The notes under the pieces were generated by a model that made no database searches, was not told the origin of the DNA, and was given only the letters and a program-made list of their open reading frames with translations. The position numbers and the translations under genes were made by a program. From Trichodesmium erythraeum IMS101 (GTDB lineage Bacteria > Cyanobacteriota > Cyanobacteriia > Cyanobacteriales > Microcoleaceae), in assembly GCF_000014265.1 (NCBI RefSeq), contig NC_008312.1:5220001-5252000 (forward strand): 32,000 bases of DNA, given 5' to 3'. Shown piece by piece: positions 1,535 through 27,101 of the stretch (the stretch's first letter is position 1; each line of letters opens with the position of its first letter).

Positions 1535-2911
1535 ATGCAAATTCCAACAAATCATACTTATCTATCTAAAACACTCCGCAACCGACGAGAAAAATTAGCA
1601 AAATTAATTGATTTTCCAACAATACTTTGGTCAGGTAGTTCTAGTTCCCGCAACTTTCCAGCTAATACTTTTCCCTTCCGTCCTAGCAGTCATTTTCTTT
1701 ATTTTGCTGGGCTACCTATTGAAGATGCTGCTATCCGTTTAGAAGGAGGAAAATTAGAACTATTTATGGATAATCTATCCCCAAGTAATTTACTTTGGCA
1801 TGGAGAAATACCAACACGCGATCGCCTCGCCGAAATTATAGGTGCTGATGCTGCTTTTCCGATTAAAGAATTAAAAGATTATGCCGCAAATGCAGCAACT
1901 ATTTATGTACAAAATCCCACTACTAAAATCACACAATGTCAGATTTTAAATCGCGATATTTTTCCTTCTAAGAAACACCAAAAAATTGACTTAGAATTAA
2001 CAAAAGCAATTATCTCTTTAAGACTTAGCCATGATGATATGGCTTTAACAGAAATTAAACAAGCAGCAGCAGTAACAGTAAAAGCTCATAAAGCAGGAAT
2101 GGCAGCAACAAAAAATGCTAAATTTGAAGCTAATATCCGTGCTGCAATGGAAAGTATTATTATTTCTCATAATATGACCTGTGCTTATAACAGTATTGTA
2201 ACTGTACATGGGGAAGTTTTACACAATGGAGAATATTATCATCCTCTACAAACAGGAGATTTACTATTAGCAGATGTGGGAGCAGAAACAACTTTAGGTT
2301 GGGCAAGTGATGTGACTCGTACTTGGCCTATTTCTGGTAAGTTTTCTCCTACACAAAGAGATATTTATGATGTAGTTTTAGCTGCCCATGATAATTGTAT
2401 TGCTCAACTTAAACCAGGTGTAGAATATTTAGATATTCATTTATTAGCAGCTAAAACTATCGCCGAAGGATTAGTTAATTTAGGAATCTTAAAAGGTCAA
2501 CCAGAACAGTTAGTAGAAATGGATGCTCATGCATTATTTTTTCCCCACGGAGTTGGTCATTTATTAGGTTTAGATGTACACGATATGGAAGATTTAGGAG
2601 ATTTAGCAGGATATGAAATAGGTCGGGAACGTAGTAGTCGTTTTGGTTTAAGTTTTTTGCGATTAAATCGTCCGTTAGCTTCTGGAATGTTAGTCACAAT
2701 TGAGCCTGGTTTTTATCAAGTTCCAGCGATTTTAAATAACACAGAAACACGTCAAAAATATCAGCATATTGTCAATTGGGAAAAGCTCAAACATTTTTCT
2801 GATGTTCGAGGTATTAGGATTGAAGATGATGTTTTAGTTACCACAAAAGGTGCTGAAATTTTGACTAAAGAATTACCAAGCAATACAGATGTAATTGAAA
2901 GTTTACTGTAA
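1535..2911 (+). CDS. pepP: Xaa-Pro aminopeptidase, peptidase family M24B
   Basis: 458-aa intact ORF. The C-terminal pita-bread fold motifs are present: DVGAE..GWASDVTRTWP, HGVGHLLGLDVHD, VTIEPGFY, GIRIEDDV. An AMP_N-like N-terminal region precedes them. Confidence 0.85.
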   Translation: MQIPTNHTYLSKTLRNRREKLAKLIDFPTILWSGSSSSRNFPANTFPFRPSSHFLYFAGLPIEDAAIRLEGGKLELFMDNLSPSNLLWHGEIPTRDRLAEIIGADAAFPIKELKDYAANAATIYVQNPTTKITQCQILNRDIFPSKKHQKIDLELTKAIISLRLSHDDMALTEIKQAAAVTVKAHKAGMAATKNAKFEANIRAAMESIIISHNMTCAYNSIVTVHGEVLHNGEYYHPLQTGDLLLADVGAETTLGWASDVTRTWPISGKFSPTQRDIYDVVLAAHDNCIAQLKPGVEYLDIHLLAAKTIAEGLVNLGILKGQPEQLVEMDAHALFFPHGVGHLLGLDVHDMEDLGDLAGYEIGRERSSRFGLSFLRLNRPLASGMLVTIEPGFYQVPAILNNTETRQKYQHIVNWEKLKHFSDVRGIRIEDDVLVTTKGAEILTKELPSNTDVIESLL

Positions 2912-3237
2912 CCATTTAACGGTTATTTTAAGTATGATTACACATTTTTTATACCAAAATTTTTATAAGATATACCACAAATAAAATTAGGGTAGATAAA
3001 TAATTTTGTTTAGGTACTCAAGTAAAAATAAATATTAGACATTTCCAAAAATACCGATGTTAAAAGATTAGGGTAAGGCAAAGGTTTGGAAAACCTTTCT
3101 GGAGATGTCTATGATCCAAACTATTTCTTATTATTATAAATAATAGAAACTGTAATCCACCTTATTCCATAAAAAAAGTAGTATTTATACTATATAATAT
3201 GTGGAATATAATTAGCTATTATATAGAGTTATTTTCC

Positions 3238-6200
3238 ATGAAAAAAAAATCTCTCAGGCAATTAGATAGAAAGACAAGTTTTTTGAAAGAAATTCCTTTA
3301 ACGTACATCTTAGTTATTCCTTTCCTTTTACAGCTCTTAATTGTAGTCGGATTAATAGGATGGTTATCTTTTCGCAATGGGCAGAAAGCTATCAATGACT
3401 TAGTTAGTAAATTGCAGGAAGAAGTTGGTGCCCGTATCGATCAGAAAGTAGATAACTATTTACAAATTCCTCATCAGATTAATCAATTAACTGCTCATGC
3501 CGTCAAGGAAGATAATCTGAGTATATTCCCAGTTCGAGGTGAAAGTCTTTTTGTGCTACAAATGAATTTGTTTAAGTCAGTTCAATGGATTTATTGTGGT
3601 AGTCCTGAAAAAGGTGAATATATGGGAGTAACAAGACTAGGAAAAAGTCAAACTTTACGGTTGGCTTTTAGTAATCAATCAACTGATTTTTTAAGTTATG
3701 AATCTGCTTTAGACAGCCAAGTCAATATTACAAATTCAATACAAGGTTCTAGAACATATGATTCTCGAAATCGCCCCTGGTATCAAGCAAGTGTTAAGGC
3801 AGGTAAAGCTACATGGAGTGAAATTTACAAAGACTTTAACAGCGGAGAACCTGTAATTACTGCTACTTTGCCAGTATACGATCAGCAAAATCAGCTCAAA
3901 GCAGTATGTGGTGTTGATCTTTACTTCTATCAAGAACTAAGTCAATTCCTCAAAAACCTAGAAATTGGTAATACTGGACAAGCTTTTATTTTAAATAAAA
4001 AAGGTATTATAATAGCAAGTTCCATTGCAAAAGCAGAATTGGAAGATAAAGATAGATTAGGATTTCAAAAAGCTGTAGATAGTAATAATCTACTAATAAA
4101 GTCAACGGCACAATATTTAATAGATCAATACAAAGACTTCAGTCACATTGACACTATAAAACAACTTAAATTTGAGATAGATGGTGAACAAATATTTATG
4201 CAAGTTTCACCTTACAAGGATGAATATGGTCTTCATTGGTTGACAGTAGTAGTCATCCCCAAAAGCGAGTTTATGACACAAATAAATAAGAATACTAAAT
4301 CAACTATTGAACTATGTATTCTGGCTTTGGCAATAACTTTAGGTTTAGGGCTATTAATAGTGAATTGGATCACTAAATCAATCAAACAATTATCAAGAGC
4401 AACCTGCGCAATTTCTCAAGGAAAACTCAATCAAAATGTATCAATTCAAGGATTCAAAGAGTTGGTGATTTTAGCTGAATCTTTTAATAAAATGACAAAA
4501 GAGTTAGCAGAATCATTTAATCATCTAGAAAGAAAAAATCAAGAGTTGCAACACTTAGACCAACTTAAAGATGAATTTTTAGCAAATACATCCCATGAAC
4601 TACGTACACCTCTAAATGGAATAATTGGCATAGCAGATTCCATAAGAGATGGTGCTACCGGTCCGATCTCAGAATTGCAGAAAAAGAATCTATCAATGAT
4701 TGTTGGTAGTGGACATCGTTTAGCCAACTTAGTCAATGATATTCTTGATTTTTCCAAACTACGACACTGCAGCATCAAACTACAAATATCTTCAGTAGGT
4801 ATGCGAGAAGTTACTGAAATAGTTCTCGCCTTTTCTCGGATGATTTTAGAAGGCAAAGATTTACAGCTTATTAATGCTATTTCATCAGATTTACCACCTG
4901 TGGAAGCAGATGAAAATCGCATTCAGCAAATTATGCATAACTTGGTAGGAAATGCTATCAAATTTACAGACTCCGGTGTAGTCAAAGTGTCAGCAGAATT
5001 AATTGATGTTAATAAAAAAATGGCAATTACCGTTTCCGATACTGGTATTGGTATCCCTGAAGATAAATATGAGGCAATTTTTAAGTCTTTTGAACAAGGA
5101 GATGGATCTACAGAGCGTCAATATGGTGGTACAGGTTTAGGTTTACCAATTACAAAAAAATTAGTTGAATTACACGGTGGGACTATTTCAGTAAAATCAA
5201 CTGTTGGTATTGGTTCAGAGTTTACTTTTACTCTGAATGTATCTGAAAAACCTGCACAAAATAAAATTATTGAATCTTCTTCCCTAAATCAAATGTCTTT
5301 GTTGGATACCGACTATTTAGCCCCATCAGTTCCCGAGCCTACCTATTTAGAATCAGAAATTAATCAAGTTCAGACATCTAGCCTCCCTTCATCATCTAAA
5401 AAAGAAAGTGAATTCCAAATTCTTATTGTTGATGATGAGCCTGTGAATCTAACCTTATTATCTAATCAACTTTCTTTGCATAATTATCAAGTTATTCAAG
5501 CTAATAATGGGCAGAAAGCTTTAGATATTCTGGCTCAAGATTTTCTACCAGATTTAATTTTATTAGATGTCATGATGCCTGGTATGACTGGTTATGAAGT
5601 CACACAAAAAGTTCGCGAAACCTGGCTATTACATCAACTACCAATTATCATGTTAACTGCTAAAAATAGAGTTTCCGATTTAGTCATGGGATTAGAAGTA
5701 GGGGCTAATGATTATCTATCTAAACCATTCCACAAAAAAGAATTATTAGCTAGAATTAAGACACATATTAATATCAAAAAACTTCGCACAGAAAAAGCAC
5801 ATATTCGTCAAACTTTTGGTCGTTATGTTACAGACGAAGTTGTTGATAATGTCCTAGAAACACCAGAAGGTTTAAAACTAGGCGGTGAACGAAAAAAAGT
5901 TACCATTCTCACTTCTGACCTTCGAGGTTTTACCAGCCTTTCTGAAAGATTAGCACCAGAAGAAGTTGTGATGGTGCTAAATTTTTATCTCTCTTCTATG
6001 GCAGATGTTATTATCTCTTTTCAAGGAACTATAGATGAATTTATGGGAGATGGAATTTTAGTTTTATTTGGGGCACTAAATCCTAGAAAAGATGATGCCA
6101 AAAGAGCTATTGCTTGTGCTGTAGCTATGCAGCAAAAAATAAAACTTGTAAACAAACAAATGGAAGCTTGGGGTTATAATCCTTTAGAAATGGGAATTGG

Positions 6201-7905: not shown

Positions 7906-9050
7906 TACCAATTTCCTAAAGTCCGACTACACATAATGCTTCAAGAATAAAATCATATCCTGTACAAGAAGCAATATCTTTTTGACTAAATTCAGTTAAT
8001 ATATTTCTCAGGATTCTGCGTCAGAAATCTAAGGAATCGAAAACTCGATTTTTCAAGAATTTTTTCACCTCTTTCCACAGTCTTTCAATGGGATTAACTT
8101 CGGGACAATAAGGAGGTTGAAATAATAAAATGATGTGATCAGGGATAGATAAATCATTCCCTAGATGCCCTCGCCCGTTATCTAGTTGAATAATATGAAT
8201 CTCTTCAGGATATGTTTGAGAAAAAAGCTCTAAAAATCTTTCAAAGCAAGGAGTATCTAGATGACTAAATTCATAAAAAAAGGAATCTCCTGTTTTTGGT
8301 TCTACTAAACCATAAAGCCATAGATATTTAAATAGCCATTGATATAAACCAATGGGCTTAACACCGCAAGCAGTAATGACTTTACCTGTTATAGTTTTTA
8401 ATCCAATTCTAGTCTCGTCTTGACACCAATAGCGAATTGGCAGTTGATTTTCCGAATATTTATTAATTAACTTAATTTTCTCTTCTAGTTGAGATGAGAG
8501 TTTTTTTTAAAGTTTTCTTGAGCTTCTTTATTTTGTTTTATGTGATTTGGACGTGGAACTTTTAATTTACTTTTTAATTTATATCTGACTAATTGATGAA
8601 CTGTTCGATAAGACAGCTCGATGTCAAAACAAGTCGTTAACCACTGTTGAATTTCACCATAGCTTTGGAAACCTTCCGGGTTTTGCAATTCTGCTTCTAA
8701 TTTCTCGATTACATTTGGTGGAATTGAACTTGGCCTCCCTCCTAGATTTTTCTTTGGTTCTAGTAAAAGATTCAGTCCACCTGTACGATATTTCCCTAAC
8801 CATTTTTGTACTGTGACTCGATTGCGTCCTAACATTATCGCAATTTCTTTTACTGTTTCTACTGTTTGAGTTTTCAACCAGTAAATAGTTTGAAGTCTTT
8901 CCTTTTCTTGAGCTGTACTCGCACTTTTTAAAAGTTTTTTGAGAGTTTCTACCGATTCATTTATCTCAATTTTTACTACTCCTGACATGGGGACATTTTC
9001 TATAATAGGTTACTTATAAAAGTGTAGCTTAAGTTTATGAAATTGGTATA
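7906..9050 (-). mobile_element. IS630-family insertion sequence (about 1.14 kb) with imperfect terminal inverted repeats of about 30 bp, inserted at a TA inside the ISAs1 transposase gene
   Basis: The left end 7906-7935 (taccaatttcctaaagtccgactacac..) is the reverse complement, with a few mismatches, of the right end 9021-9048 (..gtgtagcttaagtttatgaaattggta). Both ends abut TA. Removing the element and one TA restores a continuous ISAs1 reading frame, GGAIIITLDA. Confidence 0.8.
7916..8988 (-). pseudogene. IS630-family transposase (HTH plus DDE). It needs a -1 shift in an A8 run and contains one in-frame TGA near the C-terminus
   Basis: The N-terminal ORF 8485..8988 contains HTH motifs (IAIMLGRNRVTVQKWLGKYRTGG, GGRPSSI). 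The downstream frame reads ..IRYWCQDETRIGL..HIIQLDNGRGH..LLFQPPYCPEVNPIERLWKEVKK, which gives the D, D, E triad in IS630 spacing. The two frames overlap at tttaaaaaaaac (minus strand, about 8494-8505). A TGA follows ..NRVFDSLDF (about 8021-8023). Confidence 0.75.
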
Positions 9051-9828: not shown

Positions 9829-11175
9829 CTAAAACTTATCTTTAAAAACAGCCCCACGTTTAATTAAATCCTGCTTCATCTTCTCAGAAACTCCCATATT
9901 ATTACCAAATATAGCACCATCTAATTCTGCACCTTCTAGATTTATCTTCCTTAAATCAGCCCCTAATAACCTAGCATTTTTCAAGTTAGCGTTCATTAAA
10001 TTTGCCATAATTAACTTTGCATTTGATAATTCCGCATCACACAATTGTGCTTTTAGCAGCTTAGCTTGATTTAATAAAGCACCCGTCATAATAGAATTAA
10101 ATAATAAAGTATTGCTCAGGTTAGCTCCTTGCATATTTGCACTATATAAATTTGCCTTAATCAAATTAATATCTGCTAGATTAGCATTAGTTAATTTAAT
10201 ATGAGCGAGATTAGCATTACTAAGGTTAGCATATCTGAGGTTAGCATATTCCAGATTAGCATTAGTTAAATTAGCAGTGCCGATATTAGCACCCTTAAGA
10301 TCAGCATTTTCCAGATGAACACCACTTAAATTTCTCCCATAAGCACCATGATTAATAATATCCCAAACCAGATACCACTTATTATCTAATTCTGTTCCAT
10401 GATTAATTTTCACCCCTCTTAAATTAACATGATTTAAATTAGTATTCCTCAACTTTGTGTAATTAAGATTAGCATCACTAAAATTAGTACCTATAAGATT
10501 AGCACCTTCAAGATTAGCACCTTCAAGATTAGCTCCATTTAATTGAGTTCCAACAAGATTAACATTAGATAAATTAGAATCTTTGAGATTAGCATCTTTA
10601 AGAGTAGCATTACTCAAATTAGCATAACTAAAATTAGTACCTATAAGATTAGCTTCGTTGAGGTTTGCATCATTAAGTTCCGCATAACTCAAGTTAACAT
10701 TTGTCAGATTACTATTTCTAAGATTAGCACGAATTAAATTAGCGTATAATAAATTAGCTTGAATTAAGTATGCATCTGTAATCTCACTACGCCAGAGGTT
10801 AGCACCTTCTAGGTCAGCACCTTTGAGGTTAGCACTTTTGAAACTAGCACCTCTGATATCTGCCCCTTTAAAATTTACTTTACTAAAGTTAGCAAACCAC
10901 ATTATTGCCCCACTTAGATTAGCACCACTCAGATCACTATTACTAAAGTTAGTTCTTTTCAAATTAGCACAAAGTAGATAAGCACCCCGGAGAATAGTTT
11001 CACTCAAATTAACATCATCTAGATCACTCATACTCAGGTCAACGGACTCAAGGTTGACACCAGCAAAATTGTTAGTCAATTTTTGATGGCTAGCTTGATC
11101 CCCATTATTTATTGCTTGATTAATAGTATCTTTAATTAGTTTCTGTAATTTATCAAGTGATTTTTGGTTAGCCAT
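9829..11175 (-). CDS. Pentapeptide-repeat protein (448 aa)
   Basis: The A(D/N)LxX pentapeptide pattern runs almost without interruption (ANLSGAIM, ADLEGANL, ANLEGANLEGANLIG..). The C-terminal tail is GNNMGVSEKMKQDLIKRGAVFKDKF. Confidence 0.85.
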   Translation of the reverse strand: MANQKSLDKLQKLIKDTINQAINNGDQASHQKLTNNFAGVNLESVDLSMSDLDDVNLSETILRGAYLLCANLKRTNFSNSDLSGANLSGAIMWFANFSKVNFKGADIRGASFKSANLKGADLEGANLWRSEITDAYLIQANLLYANLIRANLRNSNLTNVNLSYAELNDANLNEANLIGTNFSYANLSNATLKDANLKDSNLSNVNLVGTQLNGANLEGANLEGANLIGTNFSDANLNYTKLRNTNLNHVNLRGVKINHGTELDNKWYLVWDIINHGAYGRNLSGVHLENADLKGANIGTANLTNANLEYANLRYANLSNANLAHIKLTNANLADINLIKANLYSANMQGANLSNTLLFNSIMTGALLNQAKLLKAQLCDAELSNAKLIMANLMNANLKNARLLGADLRKINLEGAELDGAIFGNNMGVSEKMKQDLIKRGAVFKDKF

Positions 11176-11519
11176 ATATAGCTATCTGCTCCTTAAGGCT
11201 TTCAATTAAGATGTTACATCATTTAGATAAATATTTGCTATAATCTATTTTTGCCTGTTGTCTATTAGATGTTAACTATGAAACAGAGTTTTGTAATATT
11301 ATTTACTCAAATTTATATTCTTTGAGGGTGATCATTAAAATACTTAAAAAGTAAATCTAAAAAACGGAATATAAAGTTAGAAGTCGCAGAGAGCAACAAT
11401 ATACAACATTAACCAACAGAAAATATTCTAACAATATGTAAGAATTAAGGTTCTATAGAAAACTCTATCAGTTTTTACTTATAAGAATTTTCAGTCATTA
11501 CTTCCCAAATTATATTCTC

Positions 11520-11701
11520 AAAACCGAAATGGCTATAAGCCTTTATTTTCCTTGTCAGTCATTTTTATAATTCACTTTATGACTAAGTTTGAAATACCTT
11601 AATCCTGACAACAAAACCGAAATGGCTATAAGCCTTTATTTTCCTTGTCAGTCATTTTTATAATTCACTTTATGACTAAGTTTGAAATACCTTAATCCTG
11701 A
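11520..11701. repeat. Tandem direct duplication: two identical copies of about 89 bp separated by 4 nt (period 93 bp)
   Basis: aaaaccgaaatggctataagcctttattttccttgtcagtcatttttataattcactttatgactaagtttgaaataccttaatcctga occurs at 11520-11608 and again at 11613-11701. It lies in a 1.2-kb ORF-free spacer. Confidence 0.9.
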
Positions 11702-12413: not shown

Positions 12414-13184
12414 CTAATCATTCTCAAATACTACTCCACGACTAATTAAGTTTTGCTTCATTCCCTCAGATAAACTAGCATCATGCCATAACCTAGCTTT
12501 CTCTACTTTTGTATGTTGAAAATTTGTTCCTTTTAAATTTGTTAATACTAATCCAGCATTACTTAAATTAGCATTACTTAAATTGGCATTACTTAAATTA
12601 GCATTACTTAAATTGGCATTACTTAAATTGGCATTACTTAAATTAGCACCACTTAAATTAGCACCACTTAAATTAGCCAAAGCTAGACTAACACGGTACA
12701 AGTTTGCATCAGTTAAATTGGCATTACTTAACAACGCACCACTCAAATCTGCACCACCCAAATTTACTTGACTAAGATTAGCTTCACTCAAATCTGCATC
12801 ACTTAAATCTGCACCTCTTAAATAAGCAGCATATAGATTTACCCCACTTAAATCAACACCACATAAATTAACACCATTAAATTTAGCACCAGCAAAATCT
12901 TTAGTAGGATTTAGACCTGCAATATTTGCTAAGTCCAATAAATCTTCTGTATTTGCCTCAACCACATTTTTGCTCATAATTCTAAACTCTAAAAAATCAC
13001 ATCCAGCAAAAGTTGCAGATAACATCAAACTTTGCAACTCCTCTGAAGACTTATTTTGTAACGAATGAGAAGTTAACTCAGAGTTAAAATTCTGCGATCG
13101 CAACCAAAGCACCAATTTTCTTTCTAACACTGCGAGTTGATTGGGGCTAATATTATGAGGCCATAATCCTTCAATACCACTCAT
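12414..13184 (-). CDS. Pentapeptide-repeat protein (256 aa)
   Basis: A non-repeat N-terminal region of about 90 aa is followed by continuous pentapeptide repeats, including a run of ANLSN units. The C-terminal tail LSEGMKQNLISRGVVFEND is homologous to the tail of the 9829..11175 paralog. Confidence 0.85.
   Translation of the reverse strand: MSGIEGLWPHNISPNQLAVLERKLVLWLRSQNFNSELTSHSLQNKSSEELQSLMLSATFAGCDFLEFRIMSKNVVEANTEDLLDLANIAGLNPTKDFAGAKFNGVNLCGVDLSGVNLYAAYLRGADLSDADLSEANLSQVNLGGADLSGALLSNANLTDANLYRVSLALANLSGANLSGANLSNANLSNANLSNANLSNANLSNANLSNAGLVLTNLKGTNFQHTKVEKARLWHDASLSEGMKQNLISRGVVFEND
12551..12680. repeat. Near-perfect 15-bp tandem repeat within the coding sequence (att[a/g]gcattacttaa units encoding ANLSN)
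   Basis: About 8 consecutive 15-bp units can be read directly in 12551-12680. The last two units switch to attagcaccacttaa (ANLSG). Confidence 0.85.
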
Positions 13185-15337: not shown

Positions 15338-16454
15338 TATAGCAATCCCATATTGGTCGCAACAGATATAATAGTAAGAATAACAGATCTAAGAAAAAGA
15401 CAAAAAATGAATATTATAGATAAACTAAATGATTTTATTAATCAAACAAAAGAGTCTAAAGAAATTAAAAGGGCCTTGGCCGTAAAAATGACCTTGTCAG
15501 GAAAATCCTACCATGAAGTCAAAGAATTATTAAATGTTTCTCACAGTTTTATTAGTGAATGGAAAAACCAAGCATTATTTCATGGTGTAGAAAGTTTAAG
15601 GCTTCAGTATCAAGGGAGACAAGGTTACTTAAAAACGGTCGAAAAAGAGAAAACAATTGAGTGGTTGAGAGCACAAGATTATCTTAGGTTATCAGATTTA
15701 AAAAACTACTTACAGGAGCAATATGATGTGGTTTTTGAGTCTAATCAAAGTTACTATAACTTGTTTAAAGAAGCGGGCATAAGTTGGAAAAAAACTCAAA
15801 AAAAGAATCCTGCTAAAAATGATTAATTAGTAGAAGTTAAAAGAAAAGAAATAGAGGAATTTTTAGCTAAATGGCAACCAGAAATAGAAACTGGAAAGCT
15901 TACAGTGTTTATGATTGATGAATGTCATCTTCTATGGGGAGACATATTAGGTTATGCTTGGGGAAAAACAGATGAAAGAATAGAAATTGCAATTAAAAAT
16001 GAAAAAGAAAGACAGACTTATTATGGAGCTTTAGACTATAAAACCAAGGAATTTCTTGTGCAAGAATATGAGAGTGGAAATACTAAAAATACTATTGAAT
16101 TTATTAAATATTTGCAGAAGCAAAGACCGGGCAACAAATTGGCAATATTTTGGGATGGGGCAACTTACCATAACTCTCAAGAATTTCGAGAATATTTAAT
16201 GACAATTAATCAATACTTATCAGAAGAAGAATTGTTGATAAATTGTACAAGATTTGCTCCCAATGCTCCGGAGCAAAATCCTGTTGAAGATATTTGGTTA
16301 CAAACCAAAAATTTCAGTATTACTTTTTATCATCTTTGCAGTTCTTTTAAAGTAGTTAAGTGGCTATTTAAGTTTTTTGCGGATGGTCAAATATTCAATT
16401 TCCCAAAACTTTTTCAGTATAAAATTTTGCCGCAACCTACTTAGGATTGCTATA
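15338..16454 (+). mobile_element. IS630-family insertion sequence (about 1.1 kb) with terminal inverted repeats tatagcaatcc / ggattgctata
   Basis: The left end 15338-15348 (tatagcaatcc) is the exact reverse complement of the right end 16444-16454 (ggattgctata). The ends begin and end in TA, as expected for TA-targeting IS630/Tc1-mariner elements. Confidence 0.8.
15407..16444 (+). pseudogene. IS630-family transposase interrupted by a single in-frame TAA
   Basis: ORFs 15353..15826 (HTH part, ATG at 15407, MNIIDKLN..) and 15905..16444 (DDE part: MIDECHL.., IFWDGATYHNS, APEQNPVEDIW) are in the same frame. Between them the sequence reads ..PAKND-TAA(15827-15829)-LVEVKRKEIEEFLAKWQPEIETGKLTVFMIDEC with no other defect. 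Confidence 0.8.
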
Positions 16455-23285: not shown

Positions 23286-23487
23286 TAAACTCAAAAGTCA
23301 GTTTTATTATAAAAAATACTTTTATTATGTTGAATAAATAGTCATAAATATAATCAAGGATAACTTTATAAATTAACGATATATGAATTTGACGGAAAAG
23401 GTCAGGGAAAATCCTGAGCGTTGCTGATTTTTTGGAGCTTCACAGAATGATTACAGAAAGGAGTTGTGAATGGAAACGAGTGGCGAT

Positions 23488-23532
23488 CGCCTCCCCTAGG
23501 CAAATTCCTAAATTAGTGGGGGTTATTTTTTT
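23488..23532 (+). terminator. Candidate intrinsic terminator closing repeat unit 1
   Basis: gcctcccctag pairs with ttagtgggggg over a stem of about 10 bp (one mismatch, G-U pairs) with a loop gcaaattcctaaa. The stem is followed by ttattttttt. Confidence 0.4.
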
Positions 23533-23695
23533 GCGTTGAATAAATAATCATACACAAAGGCGAGATTACTCTTATATCTATATAGTATCAAAATTTGAGG
23601 GAAAATGAAAGGGAAAAATCCTGAGAGCCGCCGTTTTTTTGGAGCTCCACAGAATAATTAAGAAAAGGAGTTGTGAATGGAAACGAGTGGCGATC

Positions 23696-23739
23696 GCCTC
23701 CCCTAGGCAAATTCCTAAATTAGTGAGGGCTATTTTTTT
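23696..23739 (+). terminator. Candidate intrinsic terminator closing repeat unit 2
   Basis: Same hairpin as unit 1 (3' arm tagtgagggc), followed by tattttttt. Confidence 0.4.
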
Positions 23740-23902
23740 GCGTTGAATAAATAATCATACACAAAGGCAAGATTACCCTTATAGTTATATAGTATCAAAA
23801 TTTGAGGGAAAATGAAAGGGAAAAATCCTGAGAGCCGCCGTTTTTTTGGAGCTCCACAGAATGATTAAGAAAAGGAGTTGTGAATGGAAACGAGTGGCGA
23901 TC

Positions 23903-23946
23903 GCCTCCCCTAGGCAAATTCCTAAATTAGTGGGGGCTATTTTTTT
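23903..23946 (+). terminator. Candidate intrinsic terminator closing repeat unit 3
   Basis: Same hairpin as unit 1 (3' arm tagtgggggc), followed by tattttttt. Confidence 0.4.
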
Positions 23947-24180
23947 GTATTGAATAAATAATCATACACAAAGGCAAGGTTACCCTTATATTTATATAGT
24001 ATCAAAATTTGAGGGAAAATGAAAGGGAAAAATCCTGAGAGCCGCCGTTTTTTTGGAGCTTCACAGAATGATTGAGAAAAGGAGTTGTTGGTTTGGGTGG
24101 AGAACAGTGGAATTATTTTCCTGGCTTAACTAAGCTCCAGGACAAAGGAAAAAAAGGGAAAAGAAAAGAGGGTAAGAGTC

Positions 24181-26059
24181 CTAGGAACGAAAGCCAGAAA
24201 CCACCGGGGAAGACGAGATGACTCGAAAACCCCCATTGTAGAAGAGGCCGCCGGCATAGTCATAGACACGCCTGGCACTCCGGCAATAAATAGAATTGAC
24301 GAGCCAGTTACCGTCGCAGAGCACTCGGCCTCCACCAAAAATAGATTTGAAAAATCCCTTTTCTGGGGTTTCCCAAGGACTACCATTACTAAGAGCACTA
24401 AGTTATCGTGCCAAATATCCTTAAACCATTCCCAGACATTGCCGTGCATATCGTATAAACCAAAAGCATTGGGAGGAAAACTTCCCACATTACAAGTAGA
24501 TTTACTGTTGTAGTTAACTAAACTAGGGATCATACTCGGAGTAAAATAGAAAGAAGTAGTTGTACCAGCACGACAAGCATATTCTCACTGACTCTCTCTG
24601 GTTAGCATATAAGCTTTTCCAATTTTTATAGATAGTTTTTGGTAAAATTCAATTGCATCATGCCATGCCACACATTCGACTGGACGCTTTCCTCCTTAAG
24701 AGTTTTTTCCAAATAGTTTTCTTTCTTTAAAGTGAGAGGAGTTTTTGCCCATAATGACTTGATCTTGTTCCGGAGTAATGCAGTATTTACTCATATAAAA
24801 AGGTTGGAGGACAACCTTGTGTCGCGGACCTTCAATTTTTGTTATTCCCTCTTCATTTTCTGGCGAATCCATGAGAAAACTTTCCCCAGGAATATAAAGC
24901 ATTTCTAATTTAAGTAATATAATTAAATCTTCTATTTTTTGCCTCACACTTCTCTAGATATAGTTAGTAAAATATTTAGAGTTGTCGAAAATAAAAACTT
25001 CAAAAGTAAATAGCTCTTCTTTTTCTAATTATGCTGTTGATACTTGAGATATTTTGGTGTATAAATAGACCGTTGTTTTATTTTATAAGTAGACTGAATT
25101 AGCAACAAAATTTCTCCTACATTTTTCAACCTTTTCTTAGTAGCTCCAACAATCATTTTATCCAAGATTTTTTCAACTTTATCCTTCACCTTTGACTTTC
25201 AATAATCTCCCCATACCCACTCACCTTGAGTCACATCAAATAAATTCAAAGGCTCTACTCAGGCTAATAAATAAATGCAAGTCACACCAAGACTATAAAT
25301 ATCACTAGCAAAAGTTGCTTTTATTACTAATTTTTCTGCGCCACATAGGATGCTGAACAATAATAGTTCCTGTTTGTCCTAAAGCATTCATAGTGGCAAA
25401 TTTAGCTGCACCAAAATCCACTAATACTAATTGATTATCTTTACTTTTCCTAATAATATTCTCGGATTTAATATATCGATAAATTACCTGCTTATAATGA
25501 ATAAATTTGAACACAAGTAATAAACATTTTAACAACTATAAAATTTGACTTACATTAAAATTCCGGAGTATTTTAATTCCTTCTGTAAATTTTTACCATT
25601 GACAAACTATTGTAATAAATACTGTCGATTATTATGATAAAAAAAATTGACTTATATTAAAATATCCGGAGTATTATAATTCCTTCTGAATTTGTAAATT
25701 TTACCGTTGATAAACCATTGTAATAAATACTGTCAATTATTATGAGTAAAATATGCGAAAATTTCTGAAATTTGTGGATGTATACTTAAACTATCTAAAC
25801 ATTCAGCTTCTTGAGCAAATAATTCCGCAGCTTTTGATAACGTTTGATTTCCTTGTACTTGAGTAAAGAATTGCTTAATTACACAAAAGGCTTTGAAAGT
25901 TTATATTCATCTACTACTTGAAAAGTTCTGCCAAAACCTCCTTGCCCGATAATTTTTAGAGAGCGATAACCTTCGACTAAAACTAACTTTTCACCACAAC
26001 TTTGAGATTTTTTTTCCTTGGTTAACTCTTCAACAGTTAAGATTTAAACATTGAGTCAT
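24181..26059 (-). pseudogene. Ser/Thr protein kinase fused to an FGE-sulfatase (SUMF1/C-type-lectin-fold) domain, broken by many frameshifts, stops and an internal duplication
   Basis: Reverse-strand pieces read as follows:
- N-terminus MTQCLNLNC*..CGEKLVLVEGYRSLKIIGQGGFGRTFQVVDE (from 26059).
- Kinase core ..LVLVDFGAAKFA..TGT.. (ORF 25305..25535).
- FGE domain IPGESFLMDSPENEEGITKIEGPRHKVVLQPFYMSKYCITPEQ (ORF 24696..24947), [12 protein letters not shown], and [21 protein letters not shown] (ORF 24126..24533).
After WHDN the conserved frame shifts, giving ..[32 protein letters not shown], with its stop at 24181-24183. The annotated ORF tail down to 24126 is an out-of-frame run-on. Confidence 0.75.
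25545..25745. repeat. Imperfect tandem duplication of about 95-100 bp inside the kinase pseudogene
   Basis: ttgacttacattaaaattccggagtattttaattccttctg..ccattgacaaactattgtaataaatactgtcgattattatga (25545-25637) is repeated with substitutions and small indels at 25647-25745. On the reverse strand both copies encode the same kinase segment (..QYLLQ.F[I/V]NGK..). Confidence 0.8.
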
Positions 26060-27101
26060 TTCGGTTATCGGCTATCAACTTTTTCAGTTTTCAGGATTTT
26101 TAGTGAACTACAATCTAGCACTATAATAATTTTAATTATTCTCAAAAAATGGGAATAAATATGTAAATAAATTATGGCTTTTAATACTGCAAATAATACT
26201 TATAATTTAGCAATCTTATGATTCTTGGAAAAAAACTTCAAAATATAAATTATTTCGAATAATTACAAGGAAAAAAAATCATATTTTTGTTGGTTAAAAT
26301 CAGAATTAATTGAAAATAAATACTTTGATTTAGTAAGCATTCAGCTATCAGCTATCGAATGAATAATTAGCCTACAATAAGAATTAAAAGTTTGAGAGAA
26401 AAAAGATGATAAGCTTTATGTAAGTATCTTATTACCTTCATGTATATTTTTGTGCAGCATGACCTAGGAAAAGCTGATAAATGACTGCTAATAGCTTAAT
26501 ACTTATGGTGTTTATAGGTTTAATTTAAATCTTTTCTAAGTAACAAATATGTTTAAATAAGCAGATTGTATAAATTTATAGCAGGATATTTGTTCATGAT
26601 TTTAATGGCATTTTTTTTGCATTGATAAGAATCATATTTATCTTGTAATTAATCAGATAAACATGGGATTATTTTAAATAAAATACTTAGAATTTTTCTA
26701 GGAATCAAGACTTAAAAACAATATTGAAAAACTTGTTAGTACTACTGTACTGAATAAACTACATAATTAGCCGTATACTTTTTTTTGTTTCTCTTTAATA
26801 AAAAAAACTAAAATGAAGATAAAAAAACCTCAATTTATCTATATTAATGCTAAATAATTTATGTTCAAAAATGTAATATTTTAGTTTTAAAACCGAAGTT
26901 TAAATCCTATTTAAACACCAAAAAACTCTAGGTTTAAAAATATTATAAGCTATTTGAAGTTGCTACATAGCTTTTTGCGATAAGTCCTGATGGAATAAGT
27001 TCCAAAAAAAAACTATAAAATGAATACTTTGCTAAACTAACTTTAAGATATAACTATAAAAATAGTTATCTAATTCTGAAGAGTTCTCAGTTTATTTACT
27101 T

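Follow-up and report, generated by a model that had tools for sequence, protein, structure and literature searches.

Tery_3426 of Trichodesmium erythraeum IMS101, very probably a decayed remote target of the diversity-generating retroelement DGR1

At the 3' end of a broken FGE-sulfatase gene of Trichodesmium erythraeum IMS101 lies a stretch of 108 nt with strikingly few adenines, which raises the question of whether it is the variable region (VR) of a diversity-generating retroelement (DGR), where its template repeat (TR) would then be located, and whether the site is still being rewritten. The stretch covers 24327..24220 (- strand) of the window, i.e., the 32,000 nt of DNA analysed here, whose numbering is used throughout and is offset from the IMS101 chromosome by exactly 5,220,000. 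It begins with CGAGTGCTCTGCGACGGTAAC / CGAGTGCTCTGCGACGGTAACTGG, ends with GGTTTTCGAGTC, and is translated into 36 residues. Our analysis very strongly favours the answer that it is the VR of a remote target of DGR1, which was diversified in the past and is now inactive and decayed.

A recount of the stretch revealed 17 A, 32 G, 32 T, and 27 C (G+C content of 54.6%), in agreement with the 17 adenines, the G+C content of about 55%, and the translation given in the original prediction, which had been made by eye from the letters. The entire window has a G+C content of 32.6%, so that the stretch ranks at the 99.9th percentile of all 108-nt segments, while only 0.65% of such segments contain equally few of the corresponding base. 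This composition is best understood as a side effect, because the scaffold of the TR described below is itself G+C-rich and adenines have been exchanged for other bases.

The open reading frame (ORF) running through the VR ends at 24126, and an in-frame GTG at 24671 results in a length of 546 nt. Supplementary Table S2 of Paul et al. (2022, Mob DNA 13:6) lists Tery_3426 as RVP_5244671 (5244671..5244126, - strand) with the entries 'hypothetical protein', TR homology 'TR1', and Hypervariable 'no'. Since both the coordinates and the length match, the stretch is the VR of Tery_3426 and the window corresponds to IMS101 positions 5,220,001-5,252,000. Among the 18 remote targets in that table, 17 show homology to TR2 and exactly one, RVP_5244671, to TR1 (Paul et al. 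2022), and the locus is thus already catalogued in the literature as a non-hypervariable TR1 remote target. Four Tara Oceans contigs (L001-L004) harbor the same locus with 99.9-100% identity.

Template repeat and variable region

Inside the window, a repeat search revealed no TR-like repeat, Pfam analysis of ten of the longer ORFs together with tblastn revealed neither a reverse transcriptase (RT) nor Avd, and no Rfam matches were obtained, which bears out the statement of the original prediction that neither a TR nor an RT is located there. First hints on a template came from homologs of the repaired FGE domain in Okeania and Trichodesmium, which have the tail ...GFR[IV][IV]SSSPVVSxFRS in common and whose differences lie precisely between the residues of the scaffold. 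At the protein level, P0003 (Tara scaffold L005), a member of this set, and the FGE domain of the window agree in only 57% of residues, while their DNA is near-identical over a region that starts at the CRSARR codons, includes the stop codon, and extends into the 3' flank. Such near-identity of DNA despite low protein identity is a signature of copying from a common template.

A collection of genomes was scanned with a pattern that accepts any base at each possible adenine site (GGTNNCTGG-N18-TGCCGGNGTGCCNGGCG), which resulted in 22 loci. Two of these are A-rich, non-coding, and located directly 3' of Avd and an RT with the motif LPLGNLTSQ, namely L010 (Trichodesmium sp. MAG_R02) and L020 (Okeania sp. 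SIO2C9); these A-rich copies are template repeats. Viral contigs yielded no match to the scaffold pattern, and six matches in JGI metagenomes included neither the window locus nor a Trichodesmium TR.

For IMS101 itself, Table S1 of Paul et al. (2022) gives two elements, DGR1 with the RT Tery_1035 at 1615715-1616581 and an adjoining TR1 of 150 nt at about 1.6166 Mb, and DGR2 with its RT at 2632880-2633791, which is the element of Pfreundt et al. (2014). By an RT search and cluster look-up, we identified three scaffolds (L035-L037) that encode exactly ABG50407.1, the product of Tery_1035, in the gene order kinase-FGE, bAvd (PF22296), and RT (RVT_1, LPLGNLTSQ), with TR1 directly downstream. The published 150-nt TR1 is present in them letter for letter, so that the TR stands next to Avd and an RT of the DGR clade (xGxxxSQ). 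Thus, the components to be looked for according to the original prediction, i.e., a repeat elsewhere in the genome, an RT with an IGNLTSQ-type motif, and Avd, were all found at DGR1 in the form of TR1, an LGNLTSQ RT, and Avd, and the template of what had been called a possibly remote target lies at a cassette elsewhere in the same genome.

The alignment with TR1 is gap-free over 149 nt with 81% identity and covers 24322..24181 plus about 8 nt after the stop codon, while the flanks of VR and TR diverge completely beyond 24173. The VR proper ends with the stop codon TAG of the FGE frame (24183-24181) and is thus the 3' end of a C-type-lectin/FGE target gene. Its last 54 nt equal the majority sequence of four TRs exactly, and IMS101 TR1 differs from them at one position (CAT vs CGT). 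This tail, which includes a small nested hairpin (GGGG-TTTT-CGAG-TCAT-CTCG-TCTT-CCCC), has the features expected of the conserved 3' homology region shared by VR and TR, of the type involved in the initiation of mutagenic homing (IMH). It was missing from the extent of 24220-24327 proposed in the original prediction, which was in this respect incomplete. Similarly, about 12 of the 21 codons listed there as variable are templated by AAC, AAT, or GAC codons of the TR, while ctc, tct, tat, gcc, and a second ctc turned out to be fixed TR codons; the codons tgc, gac, and att include changes at sites other than adenines.

Just behind the VR (Table 1) lies a pyrimidine-rich tract of the TTCTTCCCCTTT... 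type. Almost all VRs of this family have such a tract after their stop codon, and the TR has none (VR flanks with the tract: L005, L007-L009, L013, L015-L017, L019, L021, L025, L027, and L028). The tract may serve in recognition on the target side, or it may simply be 3' untranslated region that was duplicated along with the VR.

The gene that carries the VR is a wreck. Its repaired translation matches FGE-sulfatase (PF03781) with E=6e-30, and remnants of an N-terminal kinase reach to about 26070, the part 25524-26070 being homologous to the kinase region of the ortholog in Trichodesmium sp. MAG_R04 (locus L017). An intact frame across the kinase and FGE domains does not exist: two nonsense codons and a 4-nt deletion interrupt the FGE part, the kinase is left in fragments, and stop codons are abundant in all three frames of the kinase region. 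Tery_3426 is accordingly a remnant of a kinase-FGE pseudogene, not a hypothetical protein, and a 135-aa ORF at 24126-24533 runs through the VR in a frame other than that of FGE. The TGA of the FGE domain, across which the published 546-nt coordinates run, is polymorphic, being TGG in some metagenome contigs (products P0139 and P0141) and in the MAG_R04 ortholog.

Table 1. Features of the Tery_3426 locus in window coordinates
Feature	Position	Strand	Basis
Variable part of the VR, from GCTC to the last adenine-templated codon (AGG in TR, GGG in VR)	24235..24322	-	Gap-free alignment to IMS101 TR1 and sister-lineage TRs
Invariant 3' tail of the VR, putative 3' homology (IMH-type) region, ending in TAG	24181..24234	-	TR comparison
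Partial VR/TR similarity past the stop codon	24173..24180	-	VR GACTCTTA vs TR1 TATTCTTC
Pyrimidine-rich tract and 5-bp hairpin (CCTGG...CCAGG) just downstream of the VR	24100..24172	-	VR-flank alignment (Trichodesmium, Okeania, Dapis), fold
FGE-sulfatase/C-type-lectin-fold domain pseudogene carrying the VR	24181..24947	-	Pfam PF03781 on repaired translation
Nonsense TAA in FGE domain	24698-24696	-	Stop-codon location
Nonsense TGA in FGE domain	24587-24585	-	Stop-codon location
4-nt deletion (frameshift)	between 24401 and 24400	-	Comparison with ortholog L017
6-nt in-frame deletion	between 24333 and 24332	-	Comparison with ortholog L017
Largest surviving fragment of the N-terminal Ser/Thr protein kinase, same former kinase-FGE gene	25305..25535	-	Pfam Pkinase, E=4e-8
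Tery_3426/RVP_5244671 gene model, GTG start, 546 nt, internal TGA	24126..24671	-	Coordinates of Paul et al. 2022, Table S2

Adenine bias and comparison with the ortholog

VR and TR were compared without gaps across 142 nt that begin with GCTC (24322) and end with TAG (24181), and the distribution of mismatches was assessed by Fisher's test. Against IMS101 TR1, 17 of 33 adenine sites were mismatched compared to 9 of 109 other sites (p=2.7e-7), while the majority of the four TRs gave 16 of 32 and 6 of 109, respectively (p=4e-8). Relative to this majority TR, ten of the adenine-site changes fall on the first and six on the second codon position, and none on the third; overall, the 15-16 adenine-site mismatches with the sister-lineage or majority TRs are confined to positions 1 and 2, as are 15 of the 17 with IMS101 TR1. 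Thus, a near-repeat exists in the same genome whose mismatches with the VR lie predominantly on TR adenines, at the level of a degenerate VR.

Six positions distinguish IMS101 TR1 from the TRs of MAG_R02, L038, and Okeania (CAC/AAC, AGACAT/AGGAAT, GGGGC/GGCGC, AAAAAT/AACAAT, and CAT/CGT). At five of them the VR fits the other TRs and not TR1, and at the sixth (AAC; AAA in TR1) it has an adenine-site mismatch with either. An earlier state of TR1 was thus probably the source of the VR.

The MAG_R04 locus is syntenic with the window, comprising the ABC1 gene, tandem repeats, the FGE gene, a kinase remnant, GlgX, and CobU. Its FGE gene is free of the TAA, the TGA, and the deletions of the window and carries a 1-nt insertion of its own. 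The two VRs differ from each other at 16 of the 32 TR adenine sites (50%) and at 8 of 109 other sites (7%), with a single difference in the last 52 nt, while the flanking FGE, GlgX, and ABC1 sequences show 7-10% differences. Variation between orthologs that is specific to adenine sites is what rewriting by a DGR predicts, and plain conservation is therefore ruled out; judged from the sequences, past diversification at this locus between species is supported. Two outcomes that would have spoken against the original prediction, i.e., no TR or the same codons in orthologs, did not occur, as a TR exists and the ortholog of the other species has different codons.

Several points weigh against reading the stretch as a former DGR1 target. 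The TR-adenine share of the mismatches amounts to 65% (IMS101 TR1) or 73% (majority TR), below the value of >80% used as a criterion in one cyanobacterial survey (Vallota-Eastman et al. 2020, BMC Genomics 21:664), though a lower share is as expected for a decayed VR. A change of AGG to ATT and two G-to-A changes in the VR are not adenine-templated. Furthermore, two adenine-site substitutions (CTC and TAT) are common to the window and the MAG_R04 ortholog, so that part of the VR content may predate the species split. With respect to the data, the identity of TR1 is taken from the published sequence and from scaffolds with an identical RT ORF, not from the IMS101 chromosome itself, and present invariance is judged below from contig consensus sequences and a yes/no entry in the literature instead of read-level data.

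Decay of the target and its retroelement, and alternative readings

Present-day hypervariation of the VR within populations was not found. When the locus was compared across contigs, in line with the comparison between strains or metagenomic reads proposed in the original prediction, the VR was identical in seven contigs from different samples (the window, L001, L002, L003, L040, L041, and L042), even though 22 mismatches (1.6%) were counted between L042 and the window in 1395 aligned nt. Recruitment of metagenome reads likewise revealed no hypervariability of this locus (Paul et al. 2022). In addition, 6-9 non-adenine substitutions have accumulated in the VR; as these would not have survived a new round of homing, they argue against recent rewriting. 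Together with the broken host gene, these results agree with the view that the target is a fossil. The non-adenine drift of about 5.5% relative to the majority TR is about half of the divergence of about 10% between the species, which suggests that DGR1 has not rewritten the site since early in the T. erythraeum lineage.

The RT of DGR1 is also damaged. In T. erythraeum, a stop codon and a change of frame separate the part corresponding to residues 1-42 (Okeania numbering) from that corresponding to residues 45-353, and the annotated 288-aa ORF of Tery_1035 lacks the N-terminal 65 residues (L035, 2958-4017). As deduced from this sequence, the enzyme is probably defective, and surveys that count Tery_1035 among the DGR RTs may include a pseudogene. 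A clean RT ORF of 353 aa was identified only in Okeania, while the copies in L038, L039, and L010 are damaged by a frameshift and a 188-nt insertion, so that L038, at one point considered as a lineage with an intact DGR1 RT, was rejected. The insertion, located within the DGR1 RT gene of another Trichodesmium lineage, is flanked by GTAATAT (L038, 3237-3424; L039, 3123-3310) and keeps the frame, leading to a spurious 373-aa 'RT'; the corresponding position of L010 is filled with 100 N (2384-2483). A 58-nt piece of the insertion is 79% similar to window positions 3118-3175, so that the insertion may represent a small dispersed mobile element.

The best surviving alternative, to which we give very little credence, is ongoing activity, with a functional RT, e.g., that of DGR2, which is intact in wild populations, rewriting the remote target in trans at a rate below what consensus contigs can detect. 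The intact 3' tail would still allow homing, the TR RNA of Trichodesmium DGRs is strongly expressed, and DGR2 targets are hypervariable in nature. However, identity of the VR across the seven contigs including the divergent L042, the negative score by read recruitment, the persisting non-adenine substitutions, the fit to an older TR state instead of present TR1, and the disrupted DGR1 RT all argue against it. Still far less probable is a VR templated by DGR2 (Tery_1728/1729), whose TR is an abundant 265-nt non-coding RNA (Pfreundt et al. 2014) and whose 17 listed remote targets in IMS101 are likewise kinase/DUF323 proteins: the best local alignment of the published TR2 with the VR spans 16 columns as opposed to 149 nt at 81% identity for TR1, a DGR2-type VR (P0058/L043) has no tail in common with the VR of the window, and Tery_3426 was assigned to TR1 by Paul et al. 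(2022), so that membership in the element of Pfreundt et al. was rejected. An equally negligible chance remains for ordinary conservation of an FGE C-terminus combined with local G+C richness, since the motifs RVLRGGSW, CRSA, and GFRV are indeed generic to the FGE-sulfatase family, but this accounts neither for the strongly adenine-biased mismatches (p about 1e-7) in a DNA match of 142 nt with an A-rich, non-coding repeat that adjoins an RT, nor for tail DNA that is identical up to the stop codon among paralogs with only about 57% protein identity, nor for orthologs differing specifically at adenine sites.

For a former DGR1 target, the following course of events may be proposed based on established DGR biology, in which, as outlined by Liu (2002), Doulatov (2004), and Guo (2008), adenine-mutagenised cDNA of the TR RNA homes into the VR via a conserved 3' region. 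The DGR RT would have copied TR1 RNA into cDNA, with random bases inserted opposite adenines, and the mutagenised cDNA would have replaced the 3' end of the kinase-FGE gene, presumably anchored by the conserved 3' tail. AAC/AAT codons for the ligand-binding face of the C-type lectin would thereby have been rewritten. As the sequences show, this process has come to an end at the locus: the gene is now a pseudogene, its VR has drifted at non-adenine sites and is fixed in natural T. erythraeum-type populations, and the RT and TR have decayed as well.

Surroundings of the locus and known systems

Three contigs, L040 (about 10360-10530), L041 (about 2830-3421), and L042 (about 10395-10583), contain the pseudogene and VR of the window followed by a foreign flank at the tail end, with the switch point corresponding to window positions 24174-24181. 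In L040, L041, and product P0143, the sequence continues with the downstream flank of TR1, while in L042 and product P0137 it continues with the flank of the VR of the DGR1 cassette. The switch in L040 and L042 lies at most about 150 nt from the contig end, L041 has a duplicated end, and product P0138 (L040, L041) appears on four contigs from two assemblers. Most likely, these joins are assembly chimeras through the repeated tail; that the joins of L040, L041, and P0143 to the TR1 flank are real variants resulting from VR/TR recombination or aberrant retrohoming is very improbable.

A 207-bp tandem repeat (23386-24088; 3.4 copies, 94% matches) is located in the interval that separates the VR, at its 3' end, from the ABC1-kinase gene. 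Each unit contains GGCGATCGCC, a HIP1-type palindrome, and has no Rfam match. Its copy number varies in Tara contigs, with one unit less in L001 and two less in L002, and the MAG_R04 locus harbors units of about 75% similarity at a spacing of about 327 nt. Elsewhere in the window, a perfect 90-nt direct repeat (11519-11608 and 11612-11701; 100% identity, 93-nt spacing) is located in the spacer of two genes for pentapeptide-repeat proteins (9829-11175 and 12414-13184). Fragments of an IS630-like transposase at 8485-8988 and 15353-16444 (HTH_32, HTH_23, and HTH_33, with a separate DDE_3 ORF) are consistent with the reported transposon-rich surroundings of Trichodesmium DGR targets.

The published entry of Paul et al. 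(2022) concerns the same locus, with TR1 homology and without hypervariability, and does not contain the shattered kinase-FGE host, the out-of-frame ORF, the non-adenine drift, or the ortholog comparison. The degenerate VRs of DGR2 in the same genome (Pfreundt et al. 2014, Sci Rep 4:6187) are similarly remote and located at the 3' end of kinase/DUF323 genes; some carry non-adenine mutations and were judged to be no longer targets, and the RT is pseudogenised in the strain. Unlike Tery_3426, they belong to another retroelement with an unrelated TR, and their hosts are protein-coding and probably still functional. Another similar case is all3226 of Nostoc PCC 7120, a C-type-lectin/FGE paralog far from any RT with recognisable TR/VR homology; such dispersed paralogs with remnant homology were read as former targets left behind after dispersal (Vallota-Eastman et al. 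2020). The ten protein accessions given in that survey as IMS101 remote variable proteins could not be mapped to this locus. With the DGR of Bordetella phage BPP-1 (Mtd VR, TR, bRT, and Avd), the locus shares an adenine-specific TR/VR pair, a C-terminal C-type-lectin VR, a conserved 3' homology region, and Avd and an xGxxxSQ RT adjoining the TR. In contrast to BPP-1, target and TR lie about 3.6 Mb apart, the remote target is cellular, cytoplasmic, and of the kinase-FGE type, and the element is decayed.

Beyond the annotation of a well-studied genome, the finding matters little. What it adds in detail is that Tery_3426 is a pseudogene with an out-of-frame gene model, together with the ortholog comparison and the decay of both RT and TR of DGR1. 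The early end of rewriting suggested for the site fits this decay of RT and TR1, and DGR1 may therefore represent a small case study of how a DGR dies together with its targets.

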